From an uncultured Allomuricauda sp. (GTDB lineage Bacteria; Bacteroidota; Bacteroidia; Flavobacteriales; Flavobacteriaceae): a stretch of DNA of 64,000 bases. Shown piece by piece: positions 20,459-62,317 of the stretch. The position numbers were made by a program, and so were the translations under genes. Positions within the stretch are counted from its first letter, which is position 1. Each line of letters starts with the position of its first letter. A model generated the notes under the pieces. That model was not told the origin of the DNA. It did not search any database and worked only from the letters and a program-made list of their open reading frames with translations. The DNA lies in NCBI GenBank assembly GCA_937899065.1, contig CALBPG010000074.1, positions 7,612-71,611 of the forward strand, given 5' to 3'.

Positions 20459-20468
20459 GTTTGGTTTT

Positions 20469-21059: not shown

Positions 21060-21707
21060 TTAATTGATATATCCAGCAGCCTTGGCCATGCTCAAAGCCA
21101 TTTTTTTGTAATCTCTATTTTTAGCGACTTCTTCTTTGTTCAGCTTATTTCCGGGTGGATTTACGAATAAAGTATACCCCTTAAATTTTATGGTCAATGC
21201 TCGTTTACTTTCATTCCAAAGGGCTGCCATACCAGAAGTTTCTATCCACTCTGAGGATTTAGAAGTAGACTTTTGGATTGCCCATACTTCAGCCCAATCT
21301 TCACCATAACCGGTACTGGTGTTTGTAACGGTACCATCAGCGTTCTTGCCATTATCTGGTATCATGCTAATTGAACCTCTAAGCCATAAAAAATCATTTT
21401 CACCATCTTTAATATAAAAATTGCATACAGGGGGTGAGTTTGGCACTCTTCTATCTGACTTTGAGATGTCCTCAAATATCACTTTGTCTTCCGGAATGCT
21501 ATACATCGAGGCAATCACGGCGGCCGACATGTTTTCACAAGCACTACTATTCATATCATAGCTAATACGATTACCCTTAAAGTTGGTATTAACAAAGGAG
21601 GAGTCACCTAGTTCTTCCACATCAACTTGTTTGCGGTCACCGATGCATGCGGTTAAAAAAGAGGCTGCCAAAAGGCATAAGACCGTGTTTTTGGTATTGA
21701 TTTTCAT
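21060..21707 (-). CDS. Hypothetical lipoprotein
   Basis: Lipobox LTA-C, mature start CIGDRK, two internal Cys. Confidence 0.75.
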   Translation of the reverse strand: MKINTKNTVLCLLAASFLTACIGDRKQVDVEELGDSSFVNTNFKGNRISYDMNSSACENMSAAVIASMYSIPEDKVIFEDISKSDRRVPNSPPVCNFYIKDGENDFLWLRGSISMIPDNGKNADGTVTNTSTGYGEDWAEVWAIQKSTSKSSEWIETSGMAALWNESKRALTIKFKGYTLFVNPPGNKLNKEEVAKNRDYKKMALSMAKAAGYIN

Positions 21708-21716
21708 ATTCTTGGT

Positions 21717-22595
21717 TTAAAACATTTTTTTATATTCCTTAGGATTGATGGTTAGAGAGGCGTCTTGGTTGATATTGGTCACAACGCCAGTAGTTGTGCC
21801 TTCTTTTTGGATGGCAGTGAACTCCATTACAAACCCGAAAACTCCTGTTTGTTCCATGACTTCTGCGCTTCCGAAAGTCCAGTTGGGAACAGTTACATCA
21901 GGCGCTGCCCAAAAAGTAATTTGATTGCCATCCGCCTCGAGCGTGTATTCGTCACAGGTGTAGCCCAATATGGTTTTGGTATTTCCCGTTTTAGTGGGTT
22001 TGGTAAAGTCAAAATCATCCATTTGAGGTATTTGATTGCCCTTTTGGTCTGCTATGCTTTGGTTCATTTGCATTTTCATCATGGGACTATCGACAAATAC
22101 GCGGACGTTTTCGCCATCCATGACAATCACAGAGCTCCCTTGAACATCTCCACCACTGTAGGCATCCAAATTGGCTTTCATTCCGAAATAGTTGCTGTTT
22201 TCGTTCATGAGGTAGGTAATGGGAAATACCTCCCCTTCGGTAGTTGTCATTTCCATATCGACTTCAATATGGAATTCATAGACTTCATTTGATGGTGGAA
22301 CAGTTTCAGTATCTGTCGGAAAGGTTTGCATACCGTCCATCCTTTCACTTACCGTGGATTCCCCCTCTACTTCGGCTGATGCTTCCCTTTCTTTTTTGTT
22401 TCCCTTGTCACCCGTAAATAGGCTATCTATCGCTTTATCCGTAGTTTCGGCAGTCTTGTTTTCTACCTTGCGTTCTATGGTTCTAGCAGCCGCGTTTTCA
22501 GCTTTCTTTTTTAATCTTTTGAAAAATTGGGCGTGGGTTGTGTGCCCCAAGCACAACATCAAAAGGACTAGTAAGGGACGATAAAAGTGACTCAT
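21717..22595 (-). CDS. Secreted DUF4412-like protein
   Basis: Signal peptide, FFKRLKKKAENAAARTIERK helix, KTGNTKTILGYTCDEY motif. Confidence 0.75.
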   Translation of the reverse strand: MSHFYRPLLVLLMLCLGHTTHAQFFKRLKKKAENAAARTIERKVENKTAETTDKAIDSLFTGDKGNKKEREASAEVEGESTVSERMDGMQTFPTDTETVPPSNEVYEFHIEVDMEMTTTEGEVFPITYLMNENSNYFGMKANLDAYSGGDVQGSSVIVMDGENVRVFVDSPMMKMQMNQSIADQKGNQIPQMDDFDFTKPTKTGNTKTILGYTCDEYTLEADGNQITFWAAPDVTVPNWTFGSAEVMEQTGVFGFVMEFTAIQKEGTTTGVVTNINQDASLTINPKEYKKMF

Positions 22596-22617
22596 ATAAT
22601 TCTTGTTTGGTTGTGCT

Positions 22618-22703
22618 TTGGTTCCGAAAAACCATAAAAGGTTAACAACCCATCAATTTTTTTTTGAACTGGTTGTTAACCTTTGTAGATTTCAGCCTAC
22701 CAA
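22618..22703. promoter_or_regulatory. Pair of divergent ECF-type promoter motifs (GTTAACC-N17-ACCAA on each strand) forming a 14-bp inverted repeat
   Basis: AAAGGTTAACAACC 22637-22650 / GGTTGTTAACCTTT 22671-22684; ACCAA at 22699-22703 (+) and 22622-22618 (-). Confidence 0.6.
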
Positions 22704-23245
22704 TGGTCAAAAACGAAGCGTTACTACAGGAAAGATTGCGTGAGGGAGACAAAAAGGCTTTAGGGCAGTTGTATTCTGATTATAAAGCGGCCTTTCTTGC
22801 CTATTTTCGAGAGCGAGTTGCTGTGGGAATGGATATTGAAGATTTGTATCAGGATAGTGTGATTGCAGTGTATCAGAATTATGTGCTGAACCAATTACAA
22901 CTAAAGAAAGGGTCTGTAAAAACGTATTTGTTCGCCGTTGGGAAGAACAAATTGGCAGCCAAATTCAATGCGTCCAAACCTTATGTAAAGGAAGACTTTT
23001 TACTTTCCCAACCCTATGTAGAGATGGATGAGGACCAAATGCCAATGGAACAACAACTGCTTTTGAAAGAATTCAAGCAATTGGGTGAAAAGTGCAGAGA
23101 AATGCTGCGATTGCATTATTATCGGGGATTGACGGATAAAGAAATTGTCGCGAAAACGGGATACAAAGATGAAAATACCATTAAAAGTTACCGTTCAAGA
23201 TGTTTGAAGAAACTTAAAGAGGCCATTCATGGAAGCGGAAAGTGA
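22703..23245 (+). CDS. ECF RNA polymerase sigma factor
   Basis: Region 2 EDLYQDSV..SVKTYLFAVGKNK; region 4 CREMLRLHYYRGLTDKEI..TIKSYRSRCLKKLK; alternative TTG start at 22664. Confidence 0.92.
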   Translation: MVKNEALLQERLREGDKKALGQLYSDYKAAFLAYFRERVAVGMDIEDLYQDSVIAVYQNYVLNQLQLKKGSVKTYLFAVGKNKLAAKFNASKPYVKEDFLLSQPYVEMDEDQMPMEQQLLLKEFKQLGEKCREMLRLHYYRGLTDKEIVAKTGYKDENTIKSYRSRCLKKLKEAIHGSGK

Positions 23246-23948
23246 CATCATTTTATTTCGTAAAAAAGTGTTGGGTCAGTTGAGTAATGATGAGGCCCAA
23301 GCTTTCGAGCAGCGTTTCGAAACGGATATGGAATTTCAAAAATCCTATCTCGAATACAAAGAACTGTTCGAAGTCATTTCCGTATCCGAAAAACAAGAAC
23401 TCAAGAACCATCTAAAAACCGTATCAGAGCCATCTGCCAAAAAGTACCAGTATTGGTTGCCGATTGCCGCAACCATATTACTTCTTGTCGGGGCGTTTTG
23501 GATGTATCGTTTCAATGCACAGCCACAAGGATTGTGCGAGACGTATTTCGATACCTATCCAAATGTGATTGCTCCCGCCACAAGAGGAAGTGAACCTCAA
23601 AATGTTTTGGAAAAAGCGTATCGCAACTATGATTCAGGCGCTTTTGAAAAAGCCGCTTTGGAGTTTGAAAAGTATCTTCAGTATCAAGCGAATTCAGATG
23701 TGTCCTTTTACCACGCGATGGCCTTGTTGAATGCTGGTCGACTCGGCGAGGCAAAAACTATCTTGGAATCCCTGCCAAAAGATGACCCAGACTTTGCGTT
23801 TGCGGACGAAACCCAATGGTATTTGGCCCTGATTTATATCAAACTTGAAAACACCACCCAAGCGAAAAGCTTACTGTTCCAATTGGAAACCGAAGGAAAT
23901 GGTTTTAAAGCTGACGAAATCAAGTCCTTACTTTCGGAGCTTGACTAA
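23229..23948 (+). CDS. Putative membrane-anchored anti-sigma factor with extracytoplasmic TPR domain
   Basis: Overlaps sigma stop; about 70-aa N-terminal helical domain, TM WLPIAATILLLVGAFWMY, TPR-like FYHAMALL...QWYLALIYIK. Confidence 0.7.
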   Translation: MEAESDIILFRKKVLGQLSNDEAQAFEQRFETDMEFQKSYLEYKELFEVISVSEKQELKNHLKTVSEPSAKKYQYWLPIAATILLLVGAFWMYRFNAQPQGLCETYFDTYPNVIAPATRGSEPQNVLEKAYRNYDSGAFEKAALEFEKYLQYQANSDVSFYHAMALLNAGRLGEAKTILESLPKDDPDFAFADETQWYLALIYIKLENTTQAKSLLFQLETEGNGFKADEIKSLLSELD

Positions 23949-39580: not shown

Positions 39581-40606
39581 TTACGCTTTATATGATGAAT
39601 CCCTTACAATCAGATTTGTCTTTACCTCAATAGTTTTGGTGATGAGATCTTCTTTAGGTTGCTCCACCTCTTCCACCAAATATTTCACCGCAGTTCTTCC
39701 AATTTTATTTCCGGGTTGGTCCACTGTGGACAGCGCAGGGGAGATGATGGTAGAGCTCACTGAATTGCTAAAACCAACTACGGCAATTTCCTTGGGAATC
39801 TCAACATTGAATCGATTCAAAGCTTTTATTACTCCGATGGCAGCGCTATCCGTAATCGCGAAAATCGCATCCGGACGCTCTTTTAGACTTAACAATACGT
39901 TGGCCATCATACGACCTTTAGACATGGAAATGTCCTCGGTGCTGAGCACAATCTTTTGGTCTACTGGAATATTATATTCTTGGTGCGCGCGCAGGTAGCC
40001 TTCGTAGCGCTTTTTGCTGTTGAAAGATTGTTCCGTCTCTTTGATGATTGCGATACGTCGTTTACCTGTATTAATCAGATGTTCTACTGCAGTGAAAGCG
40101 GCCTCCTCTTCGTTGATGACCACTTGGGTGCAGGGAATCTTATCCGAAACCTTGTCGAACATCACTAAGGGGATCGTAGGCAAAATGTTCAAAATGCTTT
40201 CTACGGATTTTGTTTTCCTGGCCAGGGCCATTAAAATACCGTCCACTCCGAAATGCATCATGGTCCGCAGCATTTCCTCCTGTTTTTTCTCGTCGTTTTT
40301 AGATTCTGAAATAATGACACGATACCCCAAACTTTCGGCTTCGTCCAATATGCCCTTCAGCATGGTTGTGGTAAAATAGTGCGAAACATTGGGCACAATG
40401 ACCCCAAGAATGTGTGAACGATGACTTCGGAAACCACTGGCAATAATGTTGGGGACATAGTGTTGTTTTTCGGCAAGCGCTTTTACTTTCTCTTTGGTTT
40501 CCTGACTAATGTCAGGATGATTGTTCAGCGCGCGAGATACGGTTGAAATCGATAGTTCCAATTGCTTGGCCAGCTCTTTCAACGTAACCTGTTGCCTTTT
40601 CTTCAT
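39581..40606 (-). CDS. LacI family transcriptional regulator
   Basis: TLKELAKQLELSISTVSRALNNHPDIS, PNIIASG, GVIVP, VVGFSN, LSTVDQP. Confidence 0.95.
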   Translation of the reverse strand: MKKRQQVTLKELAKQLELSISTVSRALNNHPDISQETKEKVKALAEKQHYVPNIIASGFRSHRSHILGVIVPNVSHYFTTTMLKGILDEAESLGYRVIISESKNDEKKQEEMLRTMMHFGVDGILMALARKTKSVESILNILPTIPLVMFDKVSDKIPCTQVVINEEEAAFTAVEHLINTGKRRIAIIKETEQSFNSKKRYEGYLRAHQEYNIPVDQKIVLSTEDISMSKGRMMANVLLSLKERPDAIFAITDSAAIGVIKALNRFNVEIPKEIAVVGFSNSVSSTIISPALSTVDQPGNKIGRTAVKYLVEEVEQPKEDLITKTIEVKTNLIVRDSSYKA

Positions 40607-40653
40607 AGCTCAAAAATAGTCTTCCCATACCAAGGAATTACATAAAGTAACTC

Positions 40654-40675
40654 AAACGTTTTCGCAAACGTTTGC
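40654..40675. promoter_or_regulatory. LacI-type operator(s): GCAAACGTTTGC (40664-40675) with adjacent AAACGTTT (40654-40661)
   Basis: Perfect 12-bp palindrome with central CG, between divergent lacI and TBDR. Confidence 0.8.
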
Positions 40676-40791
40676 ATAATGATTTCGCAATAAAACAAAT
40701 ATTTCAATAGGGATATAAAATAAATTTAGCTCAAAATTGAGAATATTATAATTCTACTTAAAATCTAAGTTTCACAATTAACTCAACAATC

Positions 40792-43458
40792 ATGAAAAGA
40801 CTAGGGTTTGCGATACTTGTTCTATTATGCACAGGAATAGGTTACGCCCAAACTGAAATCTCAGGAAATGTAAAAGATGCCGCAGGCGTTCCCATTTTGG
40901 GAGCAAATGTTTTGATTGAAGGTACCACGGAAGGTACTACTACCGATTTTGATGGTAATTTTTTGCTTACCACTAATTTAACCGGTTCCCAAACCATTCA
41001 AATTTCCTTTATTGGATTTACTTCAGCACAACAGACCGTGGAACTGAATGGTACTCCCGTAAGTTTTGATGTAGTGCTTCAAGAAAGTGGTCAGCAGTTG
41101 GACGAGGTCGTTATTACTGCTTCTTCCACCTTTAGGTCGCAGAAACAAGCACCTTTATCTATTTCCTCTAAGAAAATGGCGGAAATTACCAGACTCTCAG
41201 CGAATAGCCAAGCAGATATTTTACGAGATGTTCCCGGTATTACTGCTGAAGGGGGTGGTGGTGAAACCGCAACCAACCTTTTTGTAAGAGGTCTCCCCTC
41301 AGGCGGACAGTACGTTTTCAATCCGCTACAATATGATGGAATGCCCTTGATGAGCACCTTTGGCTTGAACTCTTCCGCGCATGACGTGTACGCGCGTCCC
41401 GATATTGGATTTAAAGGTGTGGAATTTGTCCGTGGGGGTGCTGCCGTGCTTTACGGCGCAGGTTCTGTAGCAGGTATTATCAACTACACCAGTAAAACTG
41501 GAGATACCAATCCTGGTAACATCATCAATGTGGAATGGGGTAGCCGCGGCCGTTTAAAAACTGATTTTTATACCGGTGGTAAATTGGGTGGAGAAGATTC
41601 CAATACTTTTTACGCGTTTACGGGCTTCGTTCGAAAAGATGATGGCCCTATCGAAACGGGTTTGCCCACACGAGGGGTCCAGTTCCGTGGGAACATTAAA
41701 AAACGATTTGAAAAAGGTTCCTTTACGGTTCATGGGCAGTTTATTGATGATAAAGCTCAATTCTTTTTACCGCTGCCTTTGGAAGGCGGTTCACGAGAAA
41801 GACTGGCAGGAAACGATGGAGAAGATGTAGAACAATTGTTGTCTGGAGAGCTGGCAGAAACCTCTTTTTTGACTCCTGGCGGCGTGTATAAAAGTCCTAT
41901 CGAAGATGGAGTGTCTACGCAAGGGGGTTACGTGATGGGAGAATTCTTGTACAATTTTACCGATGACCTTCGGTTCAAATCCAAAATCCGGTATGGAAAT
42001 TACAAACACAATTTTGCGCTCTACGTAGGTGGAAATGGAGATTTTGGAAACCCTATCACACTTTCAGATTATGTAGGTGAAGTCGCCCCTGGCAACCAAG
42101 GTTTTGATGCGACCTACCAAGGAGGTAGCGGAGCACAAATCAGCGGCACGGATTTGGTGGTTGAGAATTTACACATAGACCGTTTACGTCCTATGACGGA
42201 CTATTCAGGGGAAGTAAATTTAATTTACAAATCTCCGAGTGGGAATCATACCTATACCGTGGGTAGTTTTCTATCGCGTACCGAAGCAGAGGATGTGAAT
42301 TTCCAATACAGAGTCTTATCCGAATTCAACAACAACCCAAGATTGGTGAACCTGAGTTATACCGATGGTGGTGGTGCAAATGTCATTTATTCCCAAGGTG
42401 GATTGTACAATCGTATTGGGATGACGACCAACCGATTCTTGGAACAAAGTAGAACCGCCTTCTACATTACGGACGAGATGATTTTCGACCGCTGGCGTTT
42501 TGACGTAGGGCTTCGTATCGAATCTACTACCGGGGTATTTAGCGATGGCGGTTTGGAAGAATCCCAAGTATATGACGACCCCGAATTGACTGCGGCCTTG
42601 AGCAATGTGCAGTTTGCGGATGGTAGTTTTAACAGAGCCGAAATCAATGCAACAGATTGGGCCGTTTCGCTGGCTGGATTGTATGAGTTGACCGAAACCA
42701 CGAATCTCTATGCCAACTTTTCTAGAGGGTTCTTTTTCCCACAGCAGAGAGGGTTTATTCCAACCCCTGGAATCCAAGAGTCAAATTATGATGCAGAAAC
42801 CATTTTGCAAGGAGAAGCGGGAGCCAAGTTTGGAAGTTCAGCGTTTTCCGGTTCCATTGCAGGGTATTTTGTAACCTTGCAAGATAGAATCCGAATTGAC
42901 CAAGCCATTGTGGGTGGTCAGTTGGTTGACCAAGGGAGAAGTGAGCAAACCACCCGAACCTTCGGTTTGGAAGCCACTTGGAACTATCGCTTTATGGAGC
43001 ACTGGAGCTTGAATGGTACGGCGACCTATCAAAACCACGAAATCACCAAAAATGAAACGACCGATTTGACCAATGGAGAGGTTTCCATTATCAACGAAGG
43101 GAACGAGATTGGGAGACAACCCAACTTTTTGGGAAGCTTGTCCTTGAATTTTGATGACCGACGTTTTGATGCGAACTTTACCCTAAACCATACGGGAAAC
43201 AAGTTTACCGATGACAGTAATAATGTAGAGTTAGATGCGATTACCATTGCTCGTTTGGGCGCAGGTTATAGTTTCCAAACCGATGAGGTGAACTCCTTAA
43301 GACTCGGTTTTTCCGTCTTCAATTTGTTTGACAGTGATGGCTTGACTGAAGGAAATCCACGAGCAGGAATTGCGGGGCAATCTGCTGATGGAGAGTTCTT
43401 TTTCGGAAGACCGATTCTGCCAAGACGCTTTTTCCTGACGGCGACATTTAATTTCTAA
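40792..43458 (+). CDS. TonB-dependent receptor with N-terminal carboxypeptidase-regulatory-like domain
   Basis: GANVLIEGTTEGTTTDFDGNF, LDEVVITAS, plug VEFVRGG..YG..GIIN, terminal PRRFFLTATFNF. Confidence 0.95.
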   Translation: MKRLGFAILVLLCTGIGYAQTEISGNVKDAAGVPILGANVLIEGTTEGTTTDFDGNFLLTTNLTGSQTIQISFIGFTSAQQTVELNGTPVSFDVVLQESGQQLDEVVITASSTFRSQKQAPLSISSKKMAEITRLSANSQADILRDVPGITAEGGGGETATNLFVRGLPSGGQYVFNPLQYDGMPLMSTFGLNSSAHDVYARPDIGFKGVEFVRGGAAVLYGAGSVAGIINYTSKTGDTNPGNIINVEWGSRGRLKTDFYTGGKLGGEDSNTFYAFTGFVRKDDGPIETGLPTRGVQFRGNIKKRFEKGSFTVHGQFIDDKAQFFLPLPLEGGSRERLAGNDGEDVEQLLSGELAETSFLTPGGVYKSPIEDGVSTQGGYVMGEFLYNFTDDLRFKSKIRYGNYKHNFALYVGGNGDFGNPITLSDYVGEVAPGNQGFDATYQGGSGAQISGTDLVVENLHIDRLRPMTDYSGEVNLIYKSPSGNHTYTVGSFLSRTEAEDVNFQYRVLSEFNNNPRLVNLSYTDGGGANVIYSQGGLYNRIGMTTNRFLEQSRTAFYITDEMIFDRWRFDVGLRIESTTGVFSDGGLEESQVYDDPELTAALSNVQFADGSFNRAEINATDWAVSLAGLYELTETTNLYANFSRGFFFPQQRGFIPTPGIQESNYDAETILQGEAGAKFGSSAFSGSIAGYFVTLQDRIRIDQAIVGGQLVDQGRSEQTTRTFGLEATWNYRFMEHWSLNGTATYQNHEITKNETTDLTNGEVSIINEGNEIGRQPNFLGSLSLNFDDRRFDANFTLNHTGNKFTDDSNNVELDAITIARLGAGYSFQTDEVNSLRLGFSVFNLFDSDGLTEGNPRAGIAGQSADGEFFFGRPILPRRFFLTATFNF

Positions 43459-43499
43459 TACGCAAAAAATAGTTTAAGTTAGTTCGAAGTTCAATCCAG

Positions 43500-43525
43500 G
43501 TATTGGTGGCTAAGGCCGCCAATAC
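43500..43525 (+). terminator. 11-bp stem-loop between TBDR and GH63 (terminator or mRNA-stabilising hairpin)
   Basis: GTATTGGTGGC-TAAG-GCCGCCAATAC (one G-U pair), followed by TTATTT. Confidence 0.7.
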
Positions 43526-43541
43526 TTATTTAGTACAACAG

Positions 43542-44852
43542 ATGAAGGAACAATTGATGAGCAAAGCCAAAGAAGTCTTGGAAAACAATTTCCAAGATGG
43601 GGGCTTTACCATTCCGAGTAAAGGTCTCTATCCTTTTCAATGGAAGTGGGATTCGGGCTTTATTGCCCTAGGCTACGTGCATTACGATTTGGAAAAAGCG
43701 AAACAAGAAATCGAAACCTTGTTGGATGCCCAATGGGAAAATGGTTTTATTCCGCATATTATCTTTCATAATGATAGCGATACGTATTTTCCCGGACCGG
43801 ACTTTCATGAATCCCATTTGCATCCGCAAGCGTCAAAAAAAGTTCGTTCTACAGGAATGACACAACCTCCGGTTACGGGTTTCATCTTAGAGCGTATGTT
43901 GGAAATTGTAGGAGATGAACTTTTGCCATTTATTAAGGAACACATCGATAAGGTTTTTGAAAACCACAAATACTTTTATGAAAACCGAGATGTAAACAAT
44001 GAAGGCCTAGTGTACATCTATCATAATTGGGAATCCGGAACAGACAACTCTCCCATGTGGGATGATATTTGGGCCACTATGGATTCCCCGGAATATGAAT
44101 TTGAACGTCGCGATACAACTCATGTTGACCCCGCGCAACGTCCTTCCAAAAGAGAATACGACCATTACCTATATATTATCAATATCGCAAAGGAGCATCA
44201 TTACCAAGATGCTCAGATAGCTCAACACTCTCCTTTTTTGGTATTGGATCCTTTATTCAATGCCATGCTGATTAAATCCAATGATGCCTTAATCAACTTG
44301 TATAAAAGGATTGGTGACAGTGAAGATAAAATCGCTTTTTTGGAAGCAAAGCAGCTTTTGGGAAAGGAGAATTTCAACAAAAAACTGTGCAATGCCGAGT
44401 TAGGGGCTTATGTACACTATGATTTGAGAAAGAACGAACAGATTCCATTCGTTTGTTCCTCATCGTTTTCACCGCTGTTTGCAGGAATTCCTGATACGTC
44501 AAGGGCGAAGATTTTGGTCAACACGATGATAGAAAAATTTGGAGGAGATGGCCGATACCTTTGCGCTTCGTTTGACCCTTCCCACGAACGTTTCAATCCG
44601 AAAAAATACTGGAGAGGTCCGGTTTGGATTAACATGAATTGGATGATTCATCACGGGCTTAAGTCCTATGGCTTTGATGAACTTGCCAAAAAAGTAAAGC
44701 ACGATTCATTGGAACTGATTGAACAATATGGTTTTTACGAGTACTTCGATGCGCGAAAAGCACATCCTGAGGTTACGCATAATGGCTATGGCGGAAATAA
44801 CTTTTCTTGGAGCGCTGCTTTGTATATTGATTTTATGACCAACGCAGATTAA
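43542..44852 (+). CDS. GH63 glucosylglycerate/mannosylglycerate hydrolase-like glycosidase
   Basis: LYPFQWKWDS, WESGTDNSP (acid Asp), YWRGPVWINMNW, GFYEYF (base Glu), FSWSAA; no signal peptide; ATG 43542 after the hairpin. Confidence 0.85.
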   Translation: MKEQLMSKAKEVLENNFQDGGFTIPSKGLYPFQWKWDSGFIALGYVHYDLEKAKQEIETLLDAQWENGFIPHIIFHNDSDTYFPGPDFHESHLHPQASKKVRSTGMTQPPVTGFILERMLEIVGDELLPFIKEHIDKVFENHKYFYENRDVNNEGLVYIYHNWESGTDNSPMWDDIWATMDSPEYEFERRDTTHVDPAQRPSKREYDHYLYIINIAKEHHYQDAQIAQHSPFLVLDPLFNAMLIKSNDALINLYKRIGDSEDKIAFLEAKQLLGKENFNKKLCNAELGAYVHYDLRKNEQIPFVCSSSFSPLFAGIPDTSRAKILVNTMIEKFGGDGRYLCASFDPSHERFNPKKYWRGPVWINMNWMIHHGLKSYGFDELAKKVKHDSLELIEQYGFYEYFDARKAHPEVTHNGYGGNNFSWSAALYIDFMTNAD

Positions 44853-44861
44853 AGTTTTGAG

Positions 44862-45455
44862 ATGGGTATTGACTTTGAAAAGGAATATGTTTTGGAAAAC
44901 GAGCGGGTTCGTTTAGAGCCGCTTACCCTAGACCATGTGCCAAAACTTATTCGCTTTACAGAGGAAGTTGATATCTGGACCTATTTTCTAGGGAAATCCG
45001 ATGGTAGCTCAGACTTGGCATCTTATGTACAAGATACGCTCACGGCAAAAAGTAAGAGACAAGCGTATGCCTTCGCCGTTTACGATAAAAGACACGAGCA
45101 ATTTGCAGGAAGCACCCGGTTTTTTGATTTTCAAGAGGATTTGAATACCGTCCGTATGGGGTACAGCTGGTATGGCAAGGACTTTTGGGGTACGGGTTTG
45201 AACAAAAATTGTAAATTCTTGCTTTTCCAATTTGCTTTTGACCAAATGGGGGTAGAGCGTATTGGGCTTGGAGCGCATTCCGAAAATACCAGAAGCATCA
45301 ACGCCATGAAAAGCATTGGGTGTCAGCCTGAGGGAACAATTCGCAATCTCTTTCCCGCTATTCAAGGCAAAGGTAGAGCAGATGCCATCCTTTTGGGAAT
45401 TCTAAAGGAAGAATGGCAAAAAACCATCAAAAATGACCTAAACCAACGTTTATGA
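44862..45455 (+). CDS. RimJ/RimL-like GNAT acetyltransferase
   Basis: AGSTRF..MGYSWYGKDFWGTGLNKNCKFLL, N.RS..AM..IG..EG. Confidence 0.85.
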   Translation: MGIDFEKEYVLENERVRLEPLTLDHVPKLIRFTEEVDIWTYFLGKSDGSSDLASYVQDTLTAKSKRQAYAFAVYDKRHEQFAGSTRFFDFQEDLNTVRMGYSWYGKDFWGTGLNKNCKFLLFQFAFDQMGVERIGLGAHSENTRSINAMKSIGCQPEGTIRNLFPAIQGKGRADAILLGILKEEWQKTIKNDLNQRL

Positions 45456-47056
45456 ATTACATCGACTACGTCATCATCATTGTTTATCTCGTCGCTTTTT
45501 TAGGCTTGGGATATCTGTTCAAGGAAAACAAAAGCTCTGGAGACTATTTCTTAGGAGGACGTAGTATGGGTTGGTTGCCTTTAAGTTTATCGACCATGGC
45601 GACCCAGCTTTCCGCCATTAGTTTTATCTCTGCGCCCGCTTTTGTCGGTTTAAAACCAGGCGGTGGTCTACAGTGGTTGACCTATGAATTTGGGGTGCCT
45701 TTGGCCATGGCTTTTCTCATGGTAGCGCTCATTCCTACCCTTTATAAATCAGGTATTGTAAGTGTGTATGAGTATTTGGAGAAGCGTTTTGATGCCTCTT
45801 CAAGATTACTTATCAGTTTTGTATTTCAAATCAGTCGGTCGGTGGCAACAGGGGTTATGGTTTACACGATGGCCTTGATTCTGCAAGCAACGGTCGGGAT
45901 TGATTTTTGGGTTTCTGTTTTGATTATTGGGGTAATCACTTTAGTGTACTCTTTTCAAGGCGGGATGAAGGCCGTCATTTGGGGGGATGTCATCCAAATG
46001 ATTATTCTCTTTTTAGGAATCGTGATTTGTTTGGCCTACGGAATAAGTGAGTTGGGTGGTTTTGATACGTTTTTGACCAACGTAGATAAAGATCGGCTCA
46101 CAGCGGTCGATTTTTCAAAATGGGGTTTCAACAATACTGATAAAAATGATGAGTTTGGTTTTTGGCCCATGATTATTGGAGGCTTTTTCTTGTATGCCTC
46201 TTACTACGGCACGGACCAAACGCAATCCCAAAGGTTGCTTTCCGCCAAGGGAATGCCAACCATCAAAAAACTTTTATTGGCCAATGGCTTATTTCGTTTT
46301 CCGCTGACCTTGACCTATTGTATTATGGGATTGGTACTCGGTACTCTGTTGTTACAAGACTCAAGTTTTCAAGAAACCATGGATTCGGTGTATCAAGCCA
46401 ATATTGATTCGTTGGAAGGTAAGAAAGCGGATTTGATGGTTCCGGTTTTTATCATCAAATATTTGCCTAATGGGGTTATCGGTGTATTGATTGTAGCCAT
46501 TATGTCTGCTGCCATGTCTACCTTAAGTTCGGCCGTGAACTCTTTATCCGCTGTAACCATGGAGGATTTTGTAAAACGGTTCAGACCGGATATGGACAAC
46601 AAAAAATATGTGATTACTTCCCGAATCATTTCGCTCTTCTGGGGATTGGTTTGTTTGTTTTTCGCCTTTTTTGCAGGAAATATAGAGGGTACGGTCATTG
46701 AGGTGATTAACAAGGTAAGTTCAGTATTCTACGGCCCAATTTTGGCTGGGTTCATTTTGGCCATCATGACGAAAAAAACCCATGCACTGGGAGCGAATAT
46801 CGGGATAGTAGTAGGGGTGCTTTTCAATATGTATTTATGGTTGTATGTTCCAGATGTGTTCTGGTTTTGGTGGAACGCCATTGGTTGTGTGGTCACTATT
46901 GTGGTAGCTTTGGTGGTAAGTACTATCATCAAAAGAGACGCCAACGAAGGCTTGGAAGTGGTTATTTCACCTTCCAAAAAGGAGGTTGCACTGCTGTTGG
47001 GATTCTTTGCGCTTATCATTGTGATAAGTCTTTCCCTCCCGAACTTGTTGTCTTAA
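45452..47056 (+). CDS. Sodium:solute symporter (SSS family)
   Basis: DYFLGGRSMGW, ATQLSAISF, GGMKAVIWGDVIQ, YGTDQTQSQRLL, AAMSTLSS..NS; ATGA overlap with upstream gene. Confidence 0.95.
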   Translation: MNYIDYVIIIVYLVAFLGLGYLFKENKSSGDYFLGGRSMGWLPLSLSTMATQLSAISFISAPAFVGLKPGGGLQWLTYEFGVPLAMAFLMVALIPTLYKSGIVSVYEYLEKRFDASSRLLISFVFQISRSVATGVMVYTMALILQATVGIDFWVSVLIIGVITLVYSFQGGMKAVIWGDVIQMIILFLGIVICLAYGISELGGFDTFLTNVDKDRLTAVDFSKWGFNNTDKNDEFGFWPMIIGGFFLYASYYGTDQTQSQRLLSAKGMPTIKKLLLANGLFRFPLTLTYCIMGLVLGTLLLQDSSFQETMDSVYQANIDSLEGKKADLMVPVFIIKYLPNGVIGVLIVAIMSAAMSTLSSAVNSLSAVTMEDFVKRFRPDMDNKKYVITSRIISLFWGLVCLFFAFFAGNIEGTVIEVINKVSSVFYGPILAGFILAIMTKKTHALGANIGIVVGVLFNMYLWLYVPDVFWFWWNAIGCVVTIVVALVVSTIIKRDANEGLEVVISPSKKEVALLLGFFALIIVISLSLPNLLS

Positions 47057-47106
47057 TGCCTCGTTTCCAAAAGTATTTCCGTATTTCGTACTAAATAGTG
47101 GATAAT

Positions 47107-48117
47107 ATGAAAGGAACTTCCCTTCAAATTTTGATAGTAAGCGTATGGGTGGGATTCACTTCTCTAGCATTTGCACAAACCCCAGTGGAATCTTATGTTC
47201 GCCCGAATTCGCTGAAAGCCGGAGACACCGTTGCCATCGTGGCACCAGCGGGAATTCTAAAGAATCGGCAGGCCTCAATTCAAGAAGCAACGGCAGTATT
47301 TTCTTCCTGGGGACTTCACGTCGTTCTGGGAAAACATCTTTATGCCAAAGACAATCACTTTGCCGGAACAGATGAACAGCGTGCTGAGGATTTTCAAAAA
47401 GCCATGGATGATACTTCCGTCAAGGCCATTTGGTGTGCTAGGGGTGGTTACGGCACCATGCGGATTTTGGATATGTTGGATTATTCCAATTTCAAGAAGA
47501 ATCCAAAATGGATAGAAGGTTTTTCAGATATCACGGCCATCCATGGAAAATTGCACCAACTCTGCATACAAAGCGTTCATGGTATGATGCCGACTGGGGT
47601 TGAGGGCCAAAAAATGCAGTCGGAATCGACAATTAAAAATTTGGAATCGCTTAAAAAAGTATTGTTTGGGGAAGCTCTAAAATATAAAGTTCCATCATCA
47701 TCTTATAACCGTATGGGAAAAGCTAGTGGCGAATTGATAGGTGGAAATCTCTCGTTACTACAAGCTTGTTTGCAATCAGATGCCACCTTGGATACCAAAG
47801 ACAAAATTTTATTTATCGAAGAGATTGGTGAATATCGCTATAGCATCGATAGGATGCTTTTTAGTTTGAAACGAGCGGGATACTTCAAACAACTGAAAGG
47901 ACTCATCATTGGTGATATCAGCAGAATAAAAGTAAATACTACTCCCTTTGGCAAATCCAACGAAGAGATTGTTCTGAATGTGGTAAAGGAATATGATTTT
48001 CCGGTACTTTTTGACTTTCCAGCTGGGCATGAGGAAGACAATCGGGCACTTATCTTAGGCCGGGAGGTTACCCTAGAGGTTGGTGAAAAAGAGTCCACGC
48101 TAACGTTTAAGAACTAG
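47107..48117 (+). CDS. S66 family LD-carboxypeptidase
   Basis: AGTDEQRAEDF, ARGGYG, GFSDIT (Ser), GGNL, FIEEIGE (Glu), AGHE (His); signal peptide. Confidence 0.9.
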   Translation: MKGTSLQILIVSVWVGFTSLAFAQTPVESYVRPNSLKAGDTVAIVAPAGILKNRQASIQEATAVFSSWGLHVVLGKHLYAKDNHFAGTDEQRAEDFQKAMDDTSVKAIWCARGGYGTMRILDMLDYSNFKKNPKWIEGFSDITAIHGKLHQLCIQSVHGMMPTGVEGQKMQSESTIKNLESLKKVLFGEALKYKVPSSSYNRMGKASGELIGGNLSLLQACLQSDATLDTKDKILFIEEIGEYRYSIDRMLFSLKRAGYFKQLKGLIIGDISRIKVNTTPFGKSNEEIVLNVVKEYDFPVLFDFPAGHEEDNRALILGREVTLEVGEKESTLTFKN

Positions 48118-48121
48118 TGCA

Positions 48122-49258
48122 ATGAAGTTTGTCCTAGCTCCAGATAAATACAAAGGTTCGCTTTCAGGGGAGGCGTTCTGTGAGGCTGTGGCAGGGGGGC
48201 TGAAAAGGGTTTTTCCTGAGGCTGAAATTCTGAAAAAGCCCTTGGCAGATGGGGGAGATGGGACCTTGGCTGTAATGCAACATTATTTGGCAGCGGAAAC
48301 CATAAAGACCCATGTGCATGACCCTTTGTTTCGCGAAATCACTTCGGGCTACCTTTTTTCTAAAGAAAAGGGCATCGCTTTTATCGAAATGTCAGAAGCT
48401 TCAGGATACAAATTGCTTTTGGAATCGGAACGAAATTGCATGCAAACTACCACTCTGGGTACCGGAGACTTCATTTTGGATGCTTTGGAAAGAGGAGCAA
48501 CTGAAATCATTTTAGGCATTGGTGGGAGCGCAACAAACGATGCCGGCATAGGAATGGCCCATGCGCTGGGCTTTCGTTTTTTGGACGAAACCGGAGAAGC
48601 CTTATCCCCGATAGGCGAAAACCTATCCAAAATAAAAACCATCGACCGAAAGCAGGTTCATCCAAAGTTGAAGCAGCTTACGGTTAAGGTGGCTTGCGAC
48701 GTCAAGAATCCGCTCTACGGAGAACAAGGAGCAGCTCATATTTATGGCCCACAAAAAGGTGCAACGCCAGAAGAGGTACTTCTTTTGGATAAAGGACTAC
48801 GGCATTTTGCTCAGATTGTACAAGAGGAATTCAAACTCGAATTGCAACAGATTCCTGGAGCTGGTGCTGCTGGCGGACTAGGTGCTGGCGCTATTGTTTT
48901 TTTGAATGCGACCTTAACCTCGGGGATTGATTTGGTCATGGAATTGGCCGATTTTGAGAATGCCCTGCAAGATGCCGATTGGGTTATCACCGGAGAGGGG
49001 CAATTCGATGAGCAGACCCTATCCGGTAAAACGATAGCCGGTGTCCTAAAAGTAGCCAAGGAGCGAAATATTCCCGTAGCTGCGCTTTGTGGTTCGGTTG
49101 ATATCAACCTCGATGCTTTAGAAAAAACCGAATTGGATTATGTGACTGCTGTACTAAACAAGGTAGGCTCTTTAGAGACGGCGAAAAAAGACGCATTCAA
49201 GAACCTTGAGCTGGCAGCCTATAATTTTGCCAAGCTTTTGAAAACAAAAGTGATTTAG
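48122..49258 (+). CDS. glxK: Glycerate kinase (GlxK/GarK class I)
   Basis: APDKYKGSL, PLADGGDGT, GIGGSATNDAG, CDVKNPLYG..GPQKGA, GAGAAGG, TGEGQFDEQTLSGK. Confidence 0.92.
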   Translation: MKFVLAPDKYKGSLSGEAFCEAVAGGLKRVFPEAEILKKPLADGGDGTLAVMQHYLAAETIKTHVHDPLFREITSGYLFSKEKGIAFIEMSEASGYKLLLESERNCMQTTTLGTGDFILDALERGATEIILGIGGSATNDAGIGMAHALGFRFLDETGEALSPIGENLSKIKTIDRKQVHPKLKQLTVKVACDVKNPLYGEQGAAHIYGPQKGATPEEVLLLDKGLRHFAQIVQEEFKLELQQIPGAGAAGGLGAGAIVFLNATLTSGIDLVMELADFENALQDADWVITGEGQFDEQTLSGKTIAGVLKVAKERNIPVAALCGSVDINLDALEKTELDYVTAVLNKVGSLETAKKDAFKNLELAAYNFAKLLKTKVI

Positions 49259-49268: not shown

Positions 49269-49868
49269 CTAAGCATAGGTTTGCTTCATTTTAAACACTA
49301 AAGAAGTTTTCACCACCGGCCACTCCGAATTCAAAATAGAGAAAAGGACCGTATCCCGAATATTACCCATTTTGTCAATCCGATGGTTTCGGATGATACC
49401 ATCTTGACGGGCACCCAATCTCAAAATCGCATTTCGAGAAGGAAAATTGAAAAAGTTCGTTTTGAATTCCACAGCTATGGCGTCCAATATTTCAAAAGCA
49501 TGTTGCAGTAACAGGAATTTACATTCGGTATTGACTCCTGTACGCTGTGTACTTTTGGCGTACCAGGTATAGCCGATTTCCACCCTTCGGTTTGGACCAT
49601 CCACACTGCAATAGCGGGTAGAGCCCACAACATTCCCAGTAACTTTCTCAACTACTACAAAAGGCAATGCTTTTCCAGAGGCTTGCTCCGTTAATGCATG
49701 GCTGATGTAAGTAGTTATGTTTTGCGCTGAAGGTACCGAGGTATACCAAATATCCCAAAGCTGTCCATCGGAAGCGGCCTTTATCATATCCGCCGTATGG
49801 GCTTCGGTCATGGGAATCAGTTGTACGAGAGAACCTTCTAAAGTCAGCGGTTGTATCCAGTTTGCCAT
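49269..49868 (-). CDS. RimJ/RimL-like GNAT acetyltransferase, paralog of 44862-45455
   Basis: VGSTRY..EIGYTWY..RTGVNTECKFLLLQHAFE, N.PSRNAI.RLGA. Confidence 0.88.
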   Translation of the reverse strand: MANWIQPLTLEGSLVQLIPMTEAHTADMIKAASDGQLWDIWYTSVPSAQNITTYISHALTEQASGKALPFVVVEKVTGNVVGSTRYCSVDGPNRRVEIGYTWYAKSTQRTGVNTECKFLLLQHAFEILDAIAVEFKTNFFNFPSRNAILRLGARQDGIIRNHRIDKMGNIRDTVLFSILNSEWPVVKTSLVFKMKQTYA

Positions 49869-49959
49869 ACCACATTTTTGTCCTATCAAATATAATTTGA
49901 ATTTGTACGGCGAACGAAAGGGAAGTGTACTTTTGAATCAGAAGCGTAAAAATTACCCT

Positions 49960-50361
49960 ATGAAACAAAATATTGGTTTGATGACTTTGGTCGTATCCGA
50001 TTATGATGACGCCATTGCATTCTACACTCAAAAACTACAGTTTGATTTAGTAGAGGATACACGCTTGTCCGATACGAAACGATGGGTAGTGGTCAAACCT
50101 AAAAATAGTTCGGGCAGTGGGTTGTTGTTAGCGAAGGCAGATGGCGAAAAACAACAAAACCATATCGGAAACCAAACGGGAGGTCGCGTTTTCCTGTTCC
50201 TTCATACCGATGATTTTTGGAGGGATTTCAACAACATGAAAGCTGCCGAAGTCCAATTTTTGGAAGCGCCTAGGGAAGAAGTTTATGGTACCGTTGAGGA
50301 TTTTGAGGATTTGTACGGAAACAAATGGGATCTCTTGGAAATGAAAAACGAAACTTTCTAA
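49960..50361 (+). CDS. VOC/glyoxalase family protein
   Basis: LVVSDYDDAIAFY..LGF, KRWVVV, GNQTGGRVFLFLHTDDF, DLYGNKWDL; ATG at 49960. Confidence 0.9.
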   Translation: MKQNIGLMTLVVSDYDDAIAFYTQKLQFDLVEDTRLSDTKRWVVVKPKNSSGSGLLLAKADGEKQQNHIGNQTGGRVFLFLHTDDFWRDFNNMKAAEVQFLEAPREEVYGTVEDFEDLYGNKWDLLEMKNETF

Positions 50362-59081: not shown

Positions 59082-60797
59082 TCACATAACCATGATCGAT
59101 TTACTCATACGTTGATCGCCAACCGAAATACGATAGATGTACTTTCCAGTAGAAAGACTATCACGTACGCGTTCGCGAATATTTATTTCTGCGGAACCTT
59201 CCATTACCATTTCATTGAACACAGTACCGACTTTTTGACCGATAATGTTGAACAACTCAATATCGACATGCGCCGCGAAAGGCATTTCCAAATAAATATG
59301 AGGTGCCTGTTGGTTCGGGTAATACGGTCTATGTACAATGGCATTTTCAATTTCAGGATTCGGGTCCATTGCATCTGGATCACTCGGAGGTGTCTCCGGA
59401 AGCGTTGGCGGATCGCTGTCCATCGCAATGTCAGGGAAATCCGTTCCGCTACAGTTGAAACCAAGGTTCACCGGATTGTAAGGGTGATCTAATAAATGCT
59501 GTTCCACCAATGGAATAGGCACACACATCCATTCTGCAAGAACTGTCGCGTACAAATCCCTGAAATCCATCGTGTATTCCAAGTTTCCACGACCGTTTGG
59601 ACTGTCCAAGTCTGGGTGATCGCCCACAAAAGCACTACCGTTCAATCCTGAACCGAAGAACAGGGTTGGAGCAGCTTTACCATGGTCAGTTCCTAAAGAA
59701 CCGTTTTCAAAAATTCGACGTCCAAACTCAGAGAAAGTCATACTCAAGGTAAGTCTGTCTTGCTCAGTGAAACTCAAATCTTCGTAGAAGTTATTTACGG
59801 CAATGGACAACGTAGACATCAATCTCTCGTGTGCCAAAGGTTGGTTTCCGTGGGTGTCGAATCCACCCATGGAAATCATATAAACCTTGGTTCCAAGATT
59901 CCCTTTAATCAATCGCGCCAATAAGGCCAATTGACGCGCAAAACCATTGTTTTGGTATTCTACCTGGTTTTGTCCTCTTTCGTAGGCTTCGTGAATTTTA
60001 CCAGCGTATTCGTAGGTCGTGTTGGCCACACCTCTTAAGAAACGCAGTTGGTCACCGTACATACAATCGTCAAACGGTGCATTTTCGATGTCATAGAAGA
60101 ATCCAGTTTGCGCAATTTCTTCCAACTGGTCGATGTTATTGGTAACGAATGCGTAATTGGTTTCTTCACCTTGGAATACCAAGTTGGCAATATTTCCAAT
60201 TTGAATGGCTGCTGGTGCAGCAGGTGGATTAATCAAATAATCTGGAAAGCATTGCTCAAAGTGTCTTCCCATCCAACCCGTATTGAGACCATCAAAACCA
60301 GTGGTGGTCAAGTCCGTATTTGCATAAATATCAGACCCTGTGAAGTGGGAAAGGCTTTGGTTTTGGTAACCGACACCGTGCACTGCTTTAAATTGACCTT
60401 CTCCCCAGAGTGGTTCCAAGGCATTCATGTAAGTGGGGACTCCGAAATCATCGGTAAGCTTTAGAATCTTACTCTCAGGGATGTAAATATTCGGCCGTTG
60501 CGTAGCATAAGAATCATATTGTTGTATCGGGATAACGGTACTTAAACCATCGTTTCCTCCCGAAAGACGAATCAATATGAGGATATTGTCAGTTTCCGCA
60601 CTCGAAATAGCCGCAGTAAGTGGTGATGGGCCTGAAGCGGAAAGTAAATTGCTGCCCAAAAACATGGAACCCGAACCAGCTATGCCCAAGGCCTGTAAAA
60701 AGGACCGTCGGCTCCAATTGGTGTGTTCCTGATCGTGGCCTTCATGCTCAAGACCTTTATAAGGGTCTTTATCGTGAATGTTATGAGTATCGCACAT
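59082..60797 (-). CDS. DUF1501 protein with Tat signal and T9SS type-A C-terminal domain
   Basis: SRRSFL; LSGGNDGL, SLSHF, GGFDTHGNQ, TFSEFGRR, GTDHG, DFRDLYAT; CTD YYPN..FNIIGQKV..GKYIYRI. Confidence 0.88.
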   Translation of the reverse strand: MCDTHNIHDKDPYKGLEHEGHDQEHTNWSRRSFLQALGIAGSGSMFLGSNLLSASGPSPLTAAISSAETDNILILIRLSGGNDGLSTVIPIQQYDSYATQRPNIYIPESKILKLTDDFGVPTYMNALEPLWGEGQFKAVHGVGYQNQSLSHFTGSDIYANTDLTTTGFDGLNTGWMGRHFEQCFPDYLINPPAAPAAIQIGNIANLVFQGEETNYAFVTNNIDQLEEIAQTGFFYDIENAPFDDCMYGDQLRFLRGVANTTYEYAGKIHEAYERGQNQVEYQNNGFARQLALLARLIKGNLGTKVYMISMGGFDTHGNQPLAHERLMSTLSIAVNNFYEDLSFTEQDRLTLSMTFSEFGRRIFENGSLGTDHGKAAPTLFFGSGLNGSAFVGDHPDLDSPNGRGNLEYTMDFRDLYATVLAEWMCVPIPLVEQHLLDHPYNPVNLGFNCSGTDFPDIAMDSDPPTLPETPPSDPDAMDPNPEIENAIVHRPYYPNQQAPHIYLEMPFAAHVDIELFNIIGQKVGTVFNEMVMEGSAEINIRERVRDSLSTGKYIYRISVGDQRMSKSIMVM

Positions 60798-60808
60798 AGT
60801 AGTAGGGG

Positions 60809-62317
60809 TTATTTAAGTTGAAATTCAGGTTCTCTAGACAGGTGTCGCAATAAAACATAGACTTGCGTAGGTGCTTCCATGCTTACGGCCAACATCCAAA
60901 GACTTTGGCCACCATCGATATAGTCAGGAGAATAATAAATCTCGGGAACGTCATCTATTTTGAACGCATCCATGGCGTTTTCAAAGTCTTGCTCGGTCAA
61001 CAACCCTTTTGGTGTGAATTTATTGACCAAAGCCCGTACTACGATTTCCGGATTACTGGTGTTACTATTGGCAACGCCAACGGCATCCATCGCCAAAGTT
61101 CTAAACTGTTCAGGGTTTGCTTGATAAAAACGTTCCAAGAACACTTCTGAAGTCAACCATCTACCAATAATAAAATTGGTGTTAATCCATTCACGGTCGC
61201 GTTGCCATCCGGCTACATCGACAGGATCCCATAATTCTTGACCAATCATTTCAGCGGCGTCAATCGTGTTGATGACTGTCGCGTCATCATAAGCGAAATT
61301 GGTCTCTTTCAACATCGCCAAGTATAAGTCAAACGGACTCTTGATGATAACCCCAATGGCATCTTCATCAAAAAAGTGCTGACTCTTAAAGAGCTGACGC
61401 AATACTGGGGCAATTTCAAAGTTGTTTGCCAAAAAGGTGGTCGCCATACCTGAAATAATGACTTGCGCATTACCTGCTTCGTCGTCTGAATCAGGATGTA
61501 CAAAATACTCGTAAAGTTTTTGACATATAAAAGTGGCGATTTCGTTGGGTCGTTGTGTGAAAAGAATGTCCATCGTTTCATCGTATCCCCAATTCCCAGT
61601 TTGACCCAAGATGGTCTTGTTGTCCGTGTTGAACTGCTCAGGATTGAAGGTTACAAACGTACATCCCTCTTCACCACGTTCGGTGTATCCTGATAGGGAT
61701 TTCGAGGTTTCAATAATGTCTTCTTCTGTGTATCCGTTTCCTTCACCCAAAGTGAAAAGCTCGTAAAGCTCTCGGGCATAGTTTTCATTTGGATTGTTAC
61801 CACGGTTGCGTACTCCATCCAAATAATAAAGCATCGCACTGGTCAAACCAATTTCGGAAACAAAAGTTCTGAAGTTACCTAAGGCGTTTCGTTGAAGACA
61901 ATTCACATATTCGTAAAGGAAGGAGTTACATTGATATACATCCAACTCAGTTACAAAGTGATTGCTCCAAAAAAAGCTTAAACGGTCACGTAGGTTATTG
62001 TTCAATAGGGCATTTCCGTAGGCGGTTGCCAATTCTTCTTGCTGGGCACGTCGTATTTGACGAGCCAAATCATCGTCTTCTGGATAATTGGCATTATTCC
62101 AATTGGCCCATTCCGGGGCAGGAATAGGGGCTTGGGCTAATGCTTGGTCCACAAGCGCATCTACAAGCGCATCTGCAGATTGTCCGACTGCGGCATTGAT
62201 TGTTTGTACCGAGGCACTGAATCCCAACCGACGGTACAAGTGGGCGGCACGTAACTCATCCAATGGATCAGTGTACGGCGCCAAAGTTGAGGAATTACAA
62301 TTGATAAAGTACTCCAT
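60809..62317 (-). CDS. DUF1800 family protein
   Basis: AAHLYRRLGF, FFWSNHFVT, AMLYYLDG..N..NPNENYARELYELFTLG, IKSP, P.V.GW. Confidence 0.92.
   Translation of the reverse strand: MEYFINCNSSTLAPYTDPLDELRAAHLYRRLGFSASVQTINAAVGQSADALVDALVDQALAQAPIPAPEWANWNNANYPEDDDLARQIRRAQQEELATAYGNALLNNNLRDRLSFFWSNHFVTELDVYQCNSFLYEYVNCLQRNALGNFRTFVSEIGLTSAMLYYLDGVRNRGNNPNENYARELYELFTLGEGNGYTEEDIIETSKSLSGYTERGEEGCTFVTFNPEQFNTDNKTILGQTGNWGYDETMDILFTQRPNEIATFICQKLYEYFVHPDSDDEAGNAQVIISGMATTFLANNFEIAPVLRQLFKSQHFFDEDAIGVIIKSPFDLYLAMLKETNFAYDDATVINTIDAAEMIGQELWDPVDVAGWQRDREWINTNFIIGRWLTSEVFLERFYQANPEQFRTLAMDAVGVANSNTSNPEIVVRALVNKFTPKGLLTEQDFENAMDAFKIDDVPEIYYSPDYIDGGQSLWMLAVSMEAPTQVYVLLRHLSREPEFQLK

Follow-up and report, generated by a model that had tools for sequence, protein, structure and literature searches.

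The closest described systems to the locus treated here are clusters in which a LacI-family regulator, a TonB-dependent receptor (TBDR) without SusD, a glycoside hydrolase of family 63 (GH63), a Na+/solute symporter (SSS) and a glycerate kinase (GK) stand together, and which were predicted as ‘digeneaside’ polysaccharide utilization loci (PULs) in 11 North Sea Flavobacteriia (Kappelmann, 2018, PMC6298971). They include PULs 44, 55, 239 and 254, and rows of Table S3 give the order LacI, outer-membrane receptor, GH37/GH63, SSS and glycerate kinase. For Zobellia, the GH63 mannosylglycerate hydrolase ZOBELLIA_2226 and the glycerate kinase ZOBELLIA_2229 were assigned to ‘digeneaside degradation’ (Wolter et al., 2021, PMC8072126), and that paper credits the assignment of ZGAL_2226/ZGAL_2229 in Zobellia galactanivorans to Barbeyron et al. 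(2016). In the North Sea study the published assignment names digeneaside only and has a bioinformatic basis, and no digeneaside PUL is listed there for Muricauda sp. MAR_2010_75 (PMC6298971). In the present study a stretch of 64,000 nucleotides from an uncultured Allomuricauda sp. (contig CALBPG010000074.1; ‘the window’ in the following) was analyzed, which holds the same families in the same order, again with a receptor not annotated as SusC and with no SusD. It differs by an additional acetyltransferase gene of the GNAT type between GH63 and SSS and by a gene for an exported S66 peptidase between SSS and glycerate kinase, neither of which occurs in the published rows that were compared.

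The operon is read here, with a probability of roughly 80%, as serving the LacI-repressed catabolism of alpha-glycosyl-D-glycerates, namely mannosylglycerate (the red-algal digeneaside) and/or glucosylglycerate (of cyanobacteria and other bacteria). This is supported by published work, which independently reached the same prediction. The original prediction, made from the sequence of the window, had regarded such a pathway as one not known to be described in flavobacteria; this has to be given up, because the same core cluster was published as ‘digeneaside PUL’ (PMC6298971; PMC8072126). The core cluster is thus not new, and a published prediction is confirmed.

On the level of the enzyme, the mannosylglycerate hydrolase (MgH) of Thermus (HB8/HB27) and the glucosylglycerate hydrolase (GgH) of Mycobacterium hassiacum (MhGgH) share with the GH63 of the window the MGH1-like fold, the acid/base pair, the residues of subsites -1/+1 and the cytoplasmic location, but they turn over an osmolyte made by the cell itself and are encoded outside uptake operons. 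Repressor-controlled import of mannosylglycerate, with glycerate freed for a glycerate kinase, is found in the mngRAB system of Escherichia coli, which is like the locus in this respect and unlike it in having a phosphotransferase permease (MngA), a GH38 alpha-mannosidase (MngB) whose substrate is the phosphorylated glycoside, and a GntR-type repressor; to our knowledge the two share no protein family except the downstream glycerate kinase. Similar in its logic is the sux sucrose ‘CUT’ locus of Xanthomonas campestris, where a LacI-type repressor and a TonB-dependent receptor that takes a small glycoside are combined with an inner-membrane transporter and a cytoplasmic hydrolase for high-affinity scavenging without SusD, although the substrate is sucrose, the hydrolase belongs to GH13 and the transporter to the major facilitator superfamily.

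The GH63 protein matched the MGH1-like model PF22422 with 298 bits over residues 43-437 of 449. Its closest solved relative was the mannosylglycerate hydrolase TTHA0978 of Thermus thermophilus HB8 (2z07/4wva; E 2.7e-94, ~50% identity), followed by MhGgH (5ohc; ~1e-60, ~36% identity), whereas processing glucosidases and YgjK were far weaker matches (~1e-5). With 2z07 and 5ohc it aligned over the full length of the MGH1-like (alpha/alpha)6 domain. The catalytic pair Asp182 and Glu419 of MhGgH and its substrate-binding residues are known (PMC6608630), and this list was placed on the alignment of GH63 with the structures, the chain index being the number in the paper plus 2. Both the catalytic acid Asp182, which lies within WESGxDNSP, and the base Glu419 (MhGgH numbering, as in the following) are kept, as are Tyr36, Trp40, Trp42, Asp43, His78, Tyr88, Gln115, Trp177, Gly180, Arg216, Tyr222, Tyr375, Trp376 and Trp381. 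In the window WESGTDNSP and FYEYFD fall on the two catalytic positions. Among these are all contacts to glycerate in the +1 subsite (Tyr36, Trp40, Tyr88, Arg216 and Tyr375), and the motifs that hold them align residue for residue (YPFQWKWD, DTYFPGP, QRPSKREYDHY and YWRGPVW). The protein begins with MKEQLMSKAKEVLENNF and has no signal peptide, and in the solved homologues the alignment sets in at residue 4-5. Translation likely starts from the ATG at 43542, with an in-frame TTG further upstream as a possible alternative. The cytoplasmic GH63 with intact catalytic motifs that had been proposed is hence borne out, WESGTDNSP and YWRGPVW both being present. Every characterised member of the subfamily cleaves both mannosylglycerate and glucosylglycerate, the enzymes of Thermus and Selaginella using the two equally and the mycobacterial enzyme preferring glucosylglycerate (PMC6608630). 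Taken together, this supports a predicted function of GH63 as glycosyl-glycerate hydrolase, with mannosyl- and glucosylglycerate as candidate substrates between which the sequence does not discriminate.

The conservation of the neighbourhood points in the same direction. One genome per species was scanned for relatives, resulting in 162 matches, and the best 80 of these (L001-L080) were used for the comparison of loci. All 80 came from Flavobacteriaceae-type genomes (Flagellimonas/Muricauda, Croceitalea, Maribacter, Zobellia, Cellulophaga, Arenibacter, Aquimarina, Lutibacter, Dokdonia and several Flavobacterium), and the orthologues of the digeneaside PUL in Cellulophaga, Maribacter and Zobellia were among them with 66-70% GH63 identity. 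The bacterium from which the window comes is Flagellimonas-like and marine, and the loci L001 and L003 showed 95-98% protein identity to it. Presence of genes was counted only in loci long enough to judge, namely 74 for the downstream genes, 67 for LacI and receptor, and 64 that were fully evaluable. A glycerate kinase gene was found downstream of GH63 in all 74, across many genera, so that the lack of linkage in relatives, which the original prediction had named as a finding that would speak against it, was not encountered; SSS was linked in 73/74 (51-98% identity). The commonest architecture was the five-gene core of LacI, TBDR, GH63, SSS and GK (34 of the 64 fully evaluable loci), while the seven-gene form of the window was found in five loci. 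Within the Flagellimonas group one and the same chromosomal slot holds the locus throughout, with a SIMPL gene on one side and a second GNAT gene on the other.

Table 1 Positions of the operon, of its motifs and of further features in the window, and of three stretches in related loci.
Feature	Position	Strand	Remarks
LacI-family regulator	39581-40606	-	PF00356 helix-turn-helix (HTH); Peripla_BP_1/3/4
Tandem LacI-type operators	40652-40675		imperfect TCAAACGTTTTC 40652-40663; perfect GCAAACGTTTGC 40664-40675
TonB-dependent receptor	40792-43458	+	CarboxypepD_reg, Plug, beta-barrel
GH63	43542-44852 (alternative TTG 43503)	+	PF22422 MGH1-like, E 1.4e-88
GH63 motif WESGTDNSP	44028-44054		
GH63 motif YWRGPVW	44607-44627		
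GH63 motif FYEYFD	44733-44750		
GNAT	44862-45455	+	PF13302 Acetyltransf_3, RimJ/RimL type
Na+/solute symporter SSS/SLC5	45452-47056	+	PF00474; TIGR00813 257 bits
S66 LD-carboxypeptidase homologue	47107-48117 (alternative start 47098)	+	PF02016 and PF17676
Class I glycerate kinase GlxK/GarK	48122-49258	+	PF02595 E 3.5e-140; TIGR00045 443 bits
Second GNAT	49269-49889	-	Acetyltransf_3; convergent, 10 nt beyond the glycerate kinase stop
Glyoxalase-fold gene	49717-50361		
CHAT-domain protein	13910-16807	-	965 aa
CHAT/Tectonin cluster	13910-23948		
DUF1501 and DUF1800 gene pair	59082-62317	-	
GNAT-less GH63-SSS stretch in L041	11311-11608		
GNAT-less GH63-SSS stretch in L077	11311-11715		
GNAT-less GH63-SSS stretch in L037	11314-11679		

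All seven open reading frames (ORFs) of the proposed locus, with LacI divergent from receptor, GH63, GNAT, SSS, S66 and glycerate kinase, were recovered at the positions and with the families that had been proposed (Table 1). The spacers between the six co-directional genes, from receptor to glycerate kinase, amount to 83, 9, -4, 50 and 4 nt, GNAT starting 9 nt past GH63 and overlapping the start of SSS by 4 nt, and because of these distances the genes are regarded as packed into one operon.

LacI was found in 63 of the 67 evaluable loci. It combines an N-terminal HTH with a periplasmic-binding-protein fold, and near the promoter that would be regulated lies a palindromic operator with CG at its centre, as in the LacI/GalR family. 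The protein scored under every NCBIfam equivalog cut-off, and for this reason no effector is assigned to it. The site GCAAACGTTTGC is a perfect palindrome of 12 bp with an imperfect copy, TCAAACGTTTTC, directly upstream. It was located by reading of the sequence and by pattern search, an inverted-repeat search of 40500-40900 having given nothing at the settings used. Perfect palindromes of 12 nt are not rare in themselves, with 16 observed in the window against ~18 in shuffles, so that the significance of the operator derives from its conservation across orthologues and not from rarity: in 66 orthologous LacI-proximal intergenic regions the site was present with at most one mismatch in 66/66 and exact in 49, and two sites with centres exactly 12 bp apart were present in 59/66. 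The perfect operator that had been proposed is therefore real and conserved, and LacI probably binds the tandem sites. The 12-bp spacing of the centres is an unusually tight tandem for a LacI-family repressor. A scan for sigma-70 promoters and terminators gave fewer promoter-like sites than in shuffles, with a model ill-suited to Bacteroidota promoters, and a search for TAnnTTTG gave one site, too near the lacI start to interpret.

The receptor begins with a signal peptide (MKRLGFAILVLLCTGIGYA/Q) and was present in 58 of the 67 evaluable loci. It shares the N-terminal CarboxypepD_reg domain with SusC proteins but matched the SusC model TIGR04056 with 101 bits in the N-terminal part only, against a cut-off of 368, and is thus not of the SusC class. 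No SusD partner was found, and the 83-nt gap between receptor and GH63 holds no ORF. A canonical SusC/SusD PUL was rejected on these two grounds, the score below the SusC cut-off and the lack of a SusD neighbour. In one relative, Zobellia laminariae (L058, 7029-9903), the spacer between LacI and receptor measures ~1.3 kb compared to the usual ~200 nt, and the match to the receptor is limited to its C-terminal part, which suggests an insertion in or a disruption of the receptor gene.

Among solved SLC5 proteins the symporter matched the carriers of anions and monocarboxylates NIS (185 bits), SMVT (180) and SMCT1 (167) better than SiaT and the neutral-sugar carriers SGLT1 and vSGLT, these three scoring between 145 (SGLT1) and 132 bits (vSGLT). 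This resemblance to the anion branch fits a carboxylate-bearing glycoside as the putative cargo. As GH63 is cytoplasmic and has no leader, an intact glycoside would need an importer in the inner membrane; SSS is the only candidate for this within the locus and would import the intact glycosyl-glycerate. The glycerate kinase is a full-length member of its family (TIGR00045 443 bits, with the cut-off at 168; PF02595 468 bits) with 3cwc as the closest solved relative (3e-85), and its product would be either 2- or 3-phosphoglycerate.

The gene families, the conserved active site, the localisation signals, the synteny and the conserved operator are established here, and from them we infer which substrate is used, what is transported, and how and by which effector the operon is regulated, as follows. 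The TonB-dependent receptor would capture the solute at low external concentration and deliver it to the periplasm, from where SSS would carry the intact anionic glycoside together with Na+ into the cytoplasm. There, the leaderless GH63 would hydrolyse it with inversion to mannose or glucose and D-glycerate, the latter being phosphorylated by the glycerate kinase to a phosphoglycerate that could enter glycolysis, while the hexose would be left to kinases encoded elsewhere in the genome. LacI would act on the tandem sites in the divergent intergenic spacer and would presumably be released by the glycoside or one of its products. The route of uptake, hydrolysis and phosphorylation as originally proposed is in this form upheld by homology, active site and synteny. 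GNAT and S66, which had been listed in the co-directional run of genes, are not conserved steps of it, both being variable among the loci. S66 has a Sec signal peptide that places it in the periplasm, and it occurs in only 9/74 loci.

Several points weigh against catabolism of imported glycosyl-glycerates. GH63 reached 316.4 bits with the glucosylglycerate hydrolase equivalog model NF047898, under the cut-off of 550, and is for this reason not an equivalog of the mycobacterial GgH. A TonB-dependent receptor would be unusual for a solute of ~270 Da and was missing from 9/67 loci, and the preference of SSS for the anion branch is a modest difference in score and not proof. Neither a hexose kinase nor a mannose-6-phosphate isomerase was found in the locus or in the 64-kb window. 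The roles of GNAT and S66 are left unexplained. In the full-text literature, no enzyme assay, growth test or mutant was found for any flavobacterial member, and among the sequencing runs searched the locus was present in marine and plastisphere metagenomes only and in no RNA run.

A narrower version of this reading is tentative and rather doubtful: receptor and SSS might form a dedicated high-affinity route for anionic glycosyl-glycerates, the substrate in Flagellimonas-like bacteria of the plankton and the plastisphere might be glucosylglycerate leaked from picocyanobacteria and not red-algal digeneaside, and GNAT might act on an amino analogue, for example of the serine type. If this were true, SSS would become the first Na+ symporter with a demonstrated glycosyl-glycerate cargo, and the widespread operon would be a marker of a carbon link from cyanobacterium to flavobacterium.

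Among the rival explanations, turnover of an endogenous osmolyte survives best, but it is improbable. The cell would make mannosyl- or glucosylglycerate itself and mobilise it after stress by means of GH63 and glycerate kinase, with no scavenging involved, much as the characterised MhGgH and the MgH of Thermus and Rubrobacter draw on internal pools of the cell. Four Flagellimonas-type loci (L026, L028, L043 and L050) agree with this, as they keep GH63, SSS and GK, and sometimes S66, without LacI, receptor and GNAT; the SIMPL gene there abuts GH63, which lies at ~10001 in L026, L043 and L050. These four species lack the LacI/receptor module of uptake and regulation at the same slot, from which its gain or loss as a unit follows. 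However, importers would be pointless for an internal pool, and both SSS (73/74) and the receptor (58/67) are linked to the hydrolase; control by a LacI of the substrate type and the divergent architecture are likewise typical of uptake loci. A glycosyl-glycerate synthase gene was not found within the 64-kb window, a negative that covers the window and not whole genomes, which were not searched for gpgS or mpgS.

Quite improbable, too, is that GNAT and S66 are functional steps of the pathway in this clade, whether because the substrate is an acylated, amidated or peptide-linked glycosyl-glycerate or because GNAT detoxifies imported non-metabolisable analogues, as proposed for LacA. Their place within the operon (gaps of 9, -4, 50 and 4 nt) speaks for it, and so does the retention of GNAT at the same position in 27/74 loci of several genera (42-98% identity) and of S66 in nine (61-92% identity) and in two architectures. 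The loci with S66 are all Flagellimonas/Muricauda-like. Against it, the five-gene core without either gene makes up 34 of the 64 fully evaluable loci. GNAT moreover diverges faster than its neighbours (59% compared to 90% for SSS in L005-L007) and is split over two frames in L018, a metagenome-assembled genome of Maribacter (11324-11732), which reflects either a pseudogene or a mistake in the assembly. Its relatives elsewhere in Bacteroidota (41-49% identical) had no operon gene within 5 kb in 76 of 78 loci. In the GNAT-less loci of Zobellia, Arenibacter and Kriegella (Table 1) the stretch of 300-400 nt between GH63 and SSS showed neither a convincing ORF nor any detectable remnant of GNAT.

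As for S66, its Sec signal peptide (MKGTSLQILIVSVWVGFTSLAFA/Q, with an AFA/Q site) marks it as exported to the periplasm. Its closest structure is the peptidoglycan LD-carboxypeptidase LdcA of Pseudomonas aeruginosa (PA5198; 1e-30, 110 bits), with which the Ser, Glu and His motifs GFSDI, EEIGE and PAGHE align and both S66 domains are shared, although with 128 bits it stays under the 378 that NCBIfam sets as cut-off for LdcA. The classical LdcA of murein recycling works in the cytoplasm, unlike the exported S66 of the locus, and the same is true of MccF. The S66 gene is a clade-specific insertion, placed after SSS and before glycerate kinase and found in the nearest relatives only, and GNAT and S66 are regarded as co-transcribed accessory genes outside the conserved core and not as required steps.

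Two further interpretations of these genes were rejected. A MccE/MccF pair for microcin C immunity is opposed by the better match of S66 to LdcA (110 bits) than to MccF (56-89 bits), by its export, and by the co-occurrence of GNAT and S66 in only five fully evaluable loci. A toxin-antitoxin system of the PacT/PA3270 type would require a small antitoxin ORF, and none was found between GH63, GNAT and SSS. The closest structures of GNAT are 8gxf, 8gxj and 1yre (PA3270), which are uncharacterised or the PacT toxin, and its likeness to PA3270 is at the family level only (comparison with PMC9561280). In 8-9 Flavobacterium genomes (L097, 3928-6598; set L083-L158), GNAT relatives lie between serC-like and serA-like ORFs, these names being given from N-terminal sequences. 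Serine, the 2-amino analogue of glycerate, fills the glycerate subsite in a crystal of MhGgH; the adjacency of GNAT to serC and serA may be coincidence.

Highly improbable, finally, is that GH63 is a trehalase-like or other alpha-glucosidase for trehalose, glucosylglycerol, kojibiose-type sugars or another glycoside, with the glycerate kinase linked for other reasons, since this agrees with public names, with a weak match to Pfam Trehalase (61 bits, 1.6e-16) and with the score under the GgH equivalog cut-off, but not with the far higher MGH1-like score, the full set of glycerate contacts, the rejection of glucosylglycerol and glucosylglycolate by MhGgH (PMC6608630) or the linkage of glycerate kinase in every evaluable locus, which only a glycerate-releasing substrate explains.

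The names in question illustrate how the family is treated in public data, where more than 4,700 relatives of GH63 were found at E<=1e-30 and bear names such as ‘trehalase family glycosidase’, ‘amylo-alpha-1,6-glucosidase’, ‘MGH1-like domain-containing protein’, ‘Glycoside hydrolase family 37’ or ‘hypothetical protein’. This annotation is inconsistent and mostly misleading. With catabolism of alpha-glycosyl-D-glycerates as the preferred reading, biochemical and genetic validation in one cultured relative would set right how thousands of genes are annotated, define the specificity of SSS and of a non-SusC TonB receptor, and yield a marker for osmolyte cross-feeding. Mannosylglycerate and glucosylglycerate are abundant in red algae and marine picocyanobacteria, and their consumers are poorly documented. 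To the published prediction the present analysis adds quantitative synteny, a check of the active site on the level of residues, the conserved tandem operator and the affinity of SSS to the anion branch, further the export of S66, the status of GNAT and S66 as variable accessories and the modular loss of the LacI-receptor unit. For the window alone the result is ordinary, consisting of a published prediction with regulatory and comparative detail.

The genes flanking the operon on the left (SDR, TetR, DUF6265 and SIMPL) and on the right (the convergent second GNAT, a glyoxalase-fold protein, AraC and an aldehyde dehydrogenase) are not related to it. The second GNAT is ~28-31% identical to the GNAT of the operon, and its position is kept throughout the Flagellimonas clade. 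Its longest ORF overlaps that of the glyoxalase-fold gene by ~170 nt, so that one of the two starts probably lies later. Further away in the window, the gene for the CHAT-domain protein is followed on the same strand by one for a Tectonin-domain protein and by five ORFs, four of them without Pfam match and one with DUF4412; a sigma-70 region-4 protein and a TPR protein are encoded on the opposite strand beside this uncharacterised cluster. The genes with DUF1501 and DUF1800 form a conserved pair.

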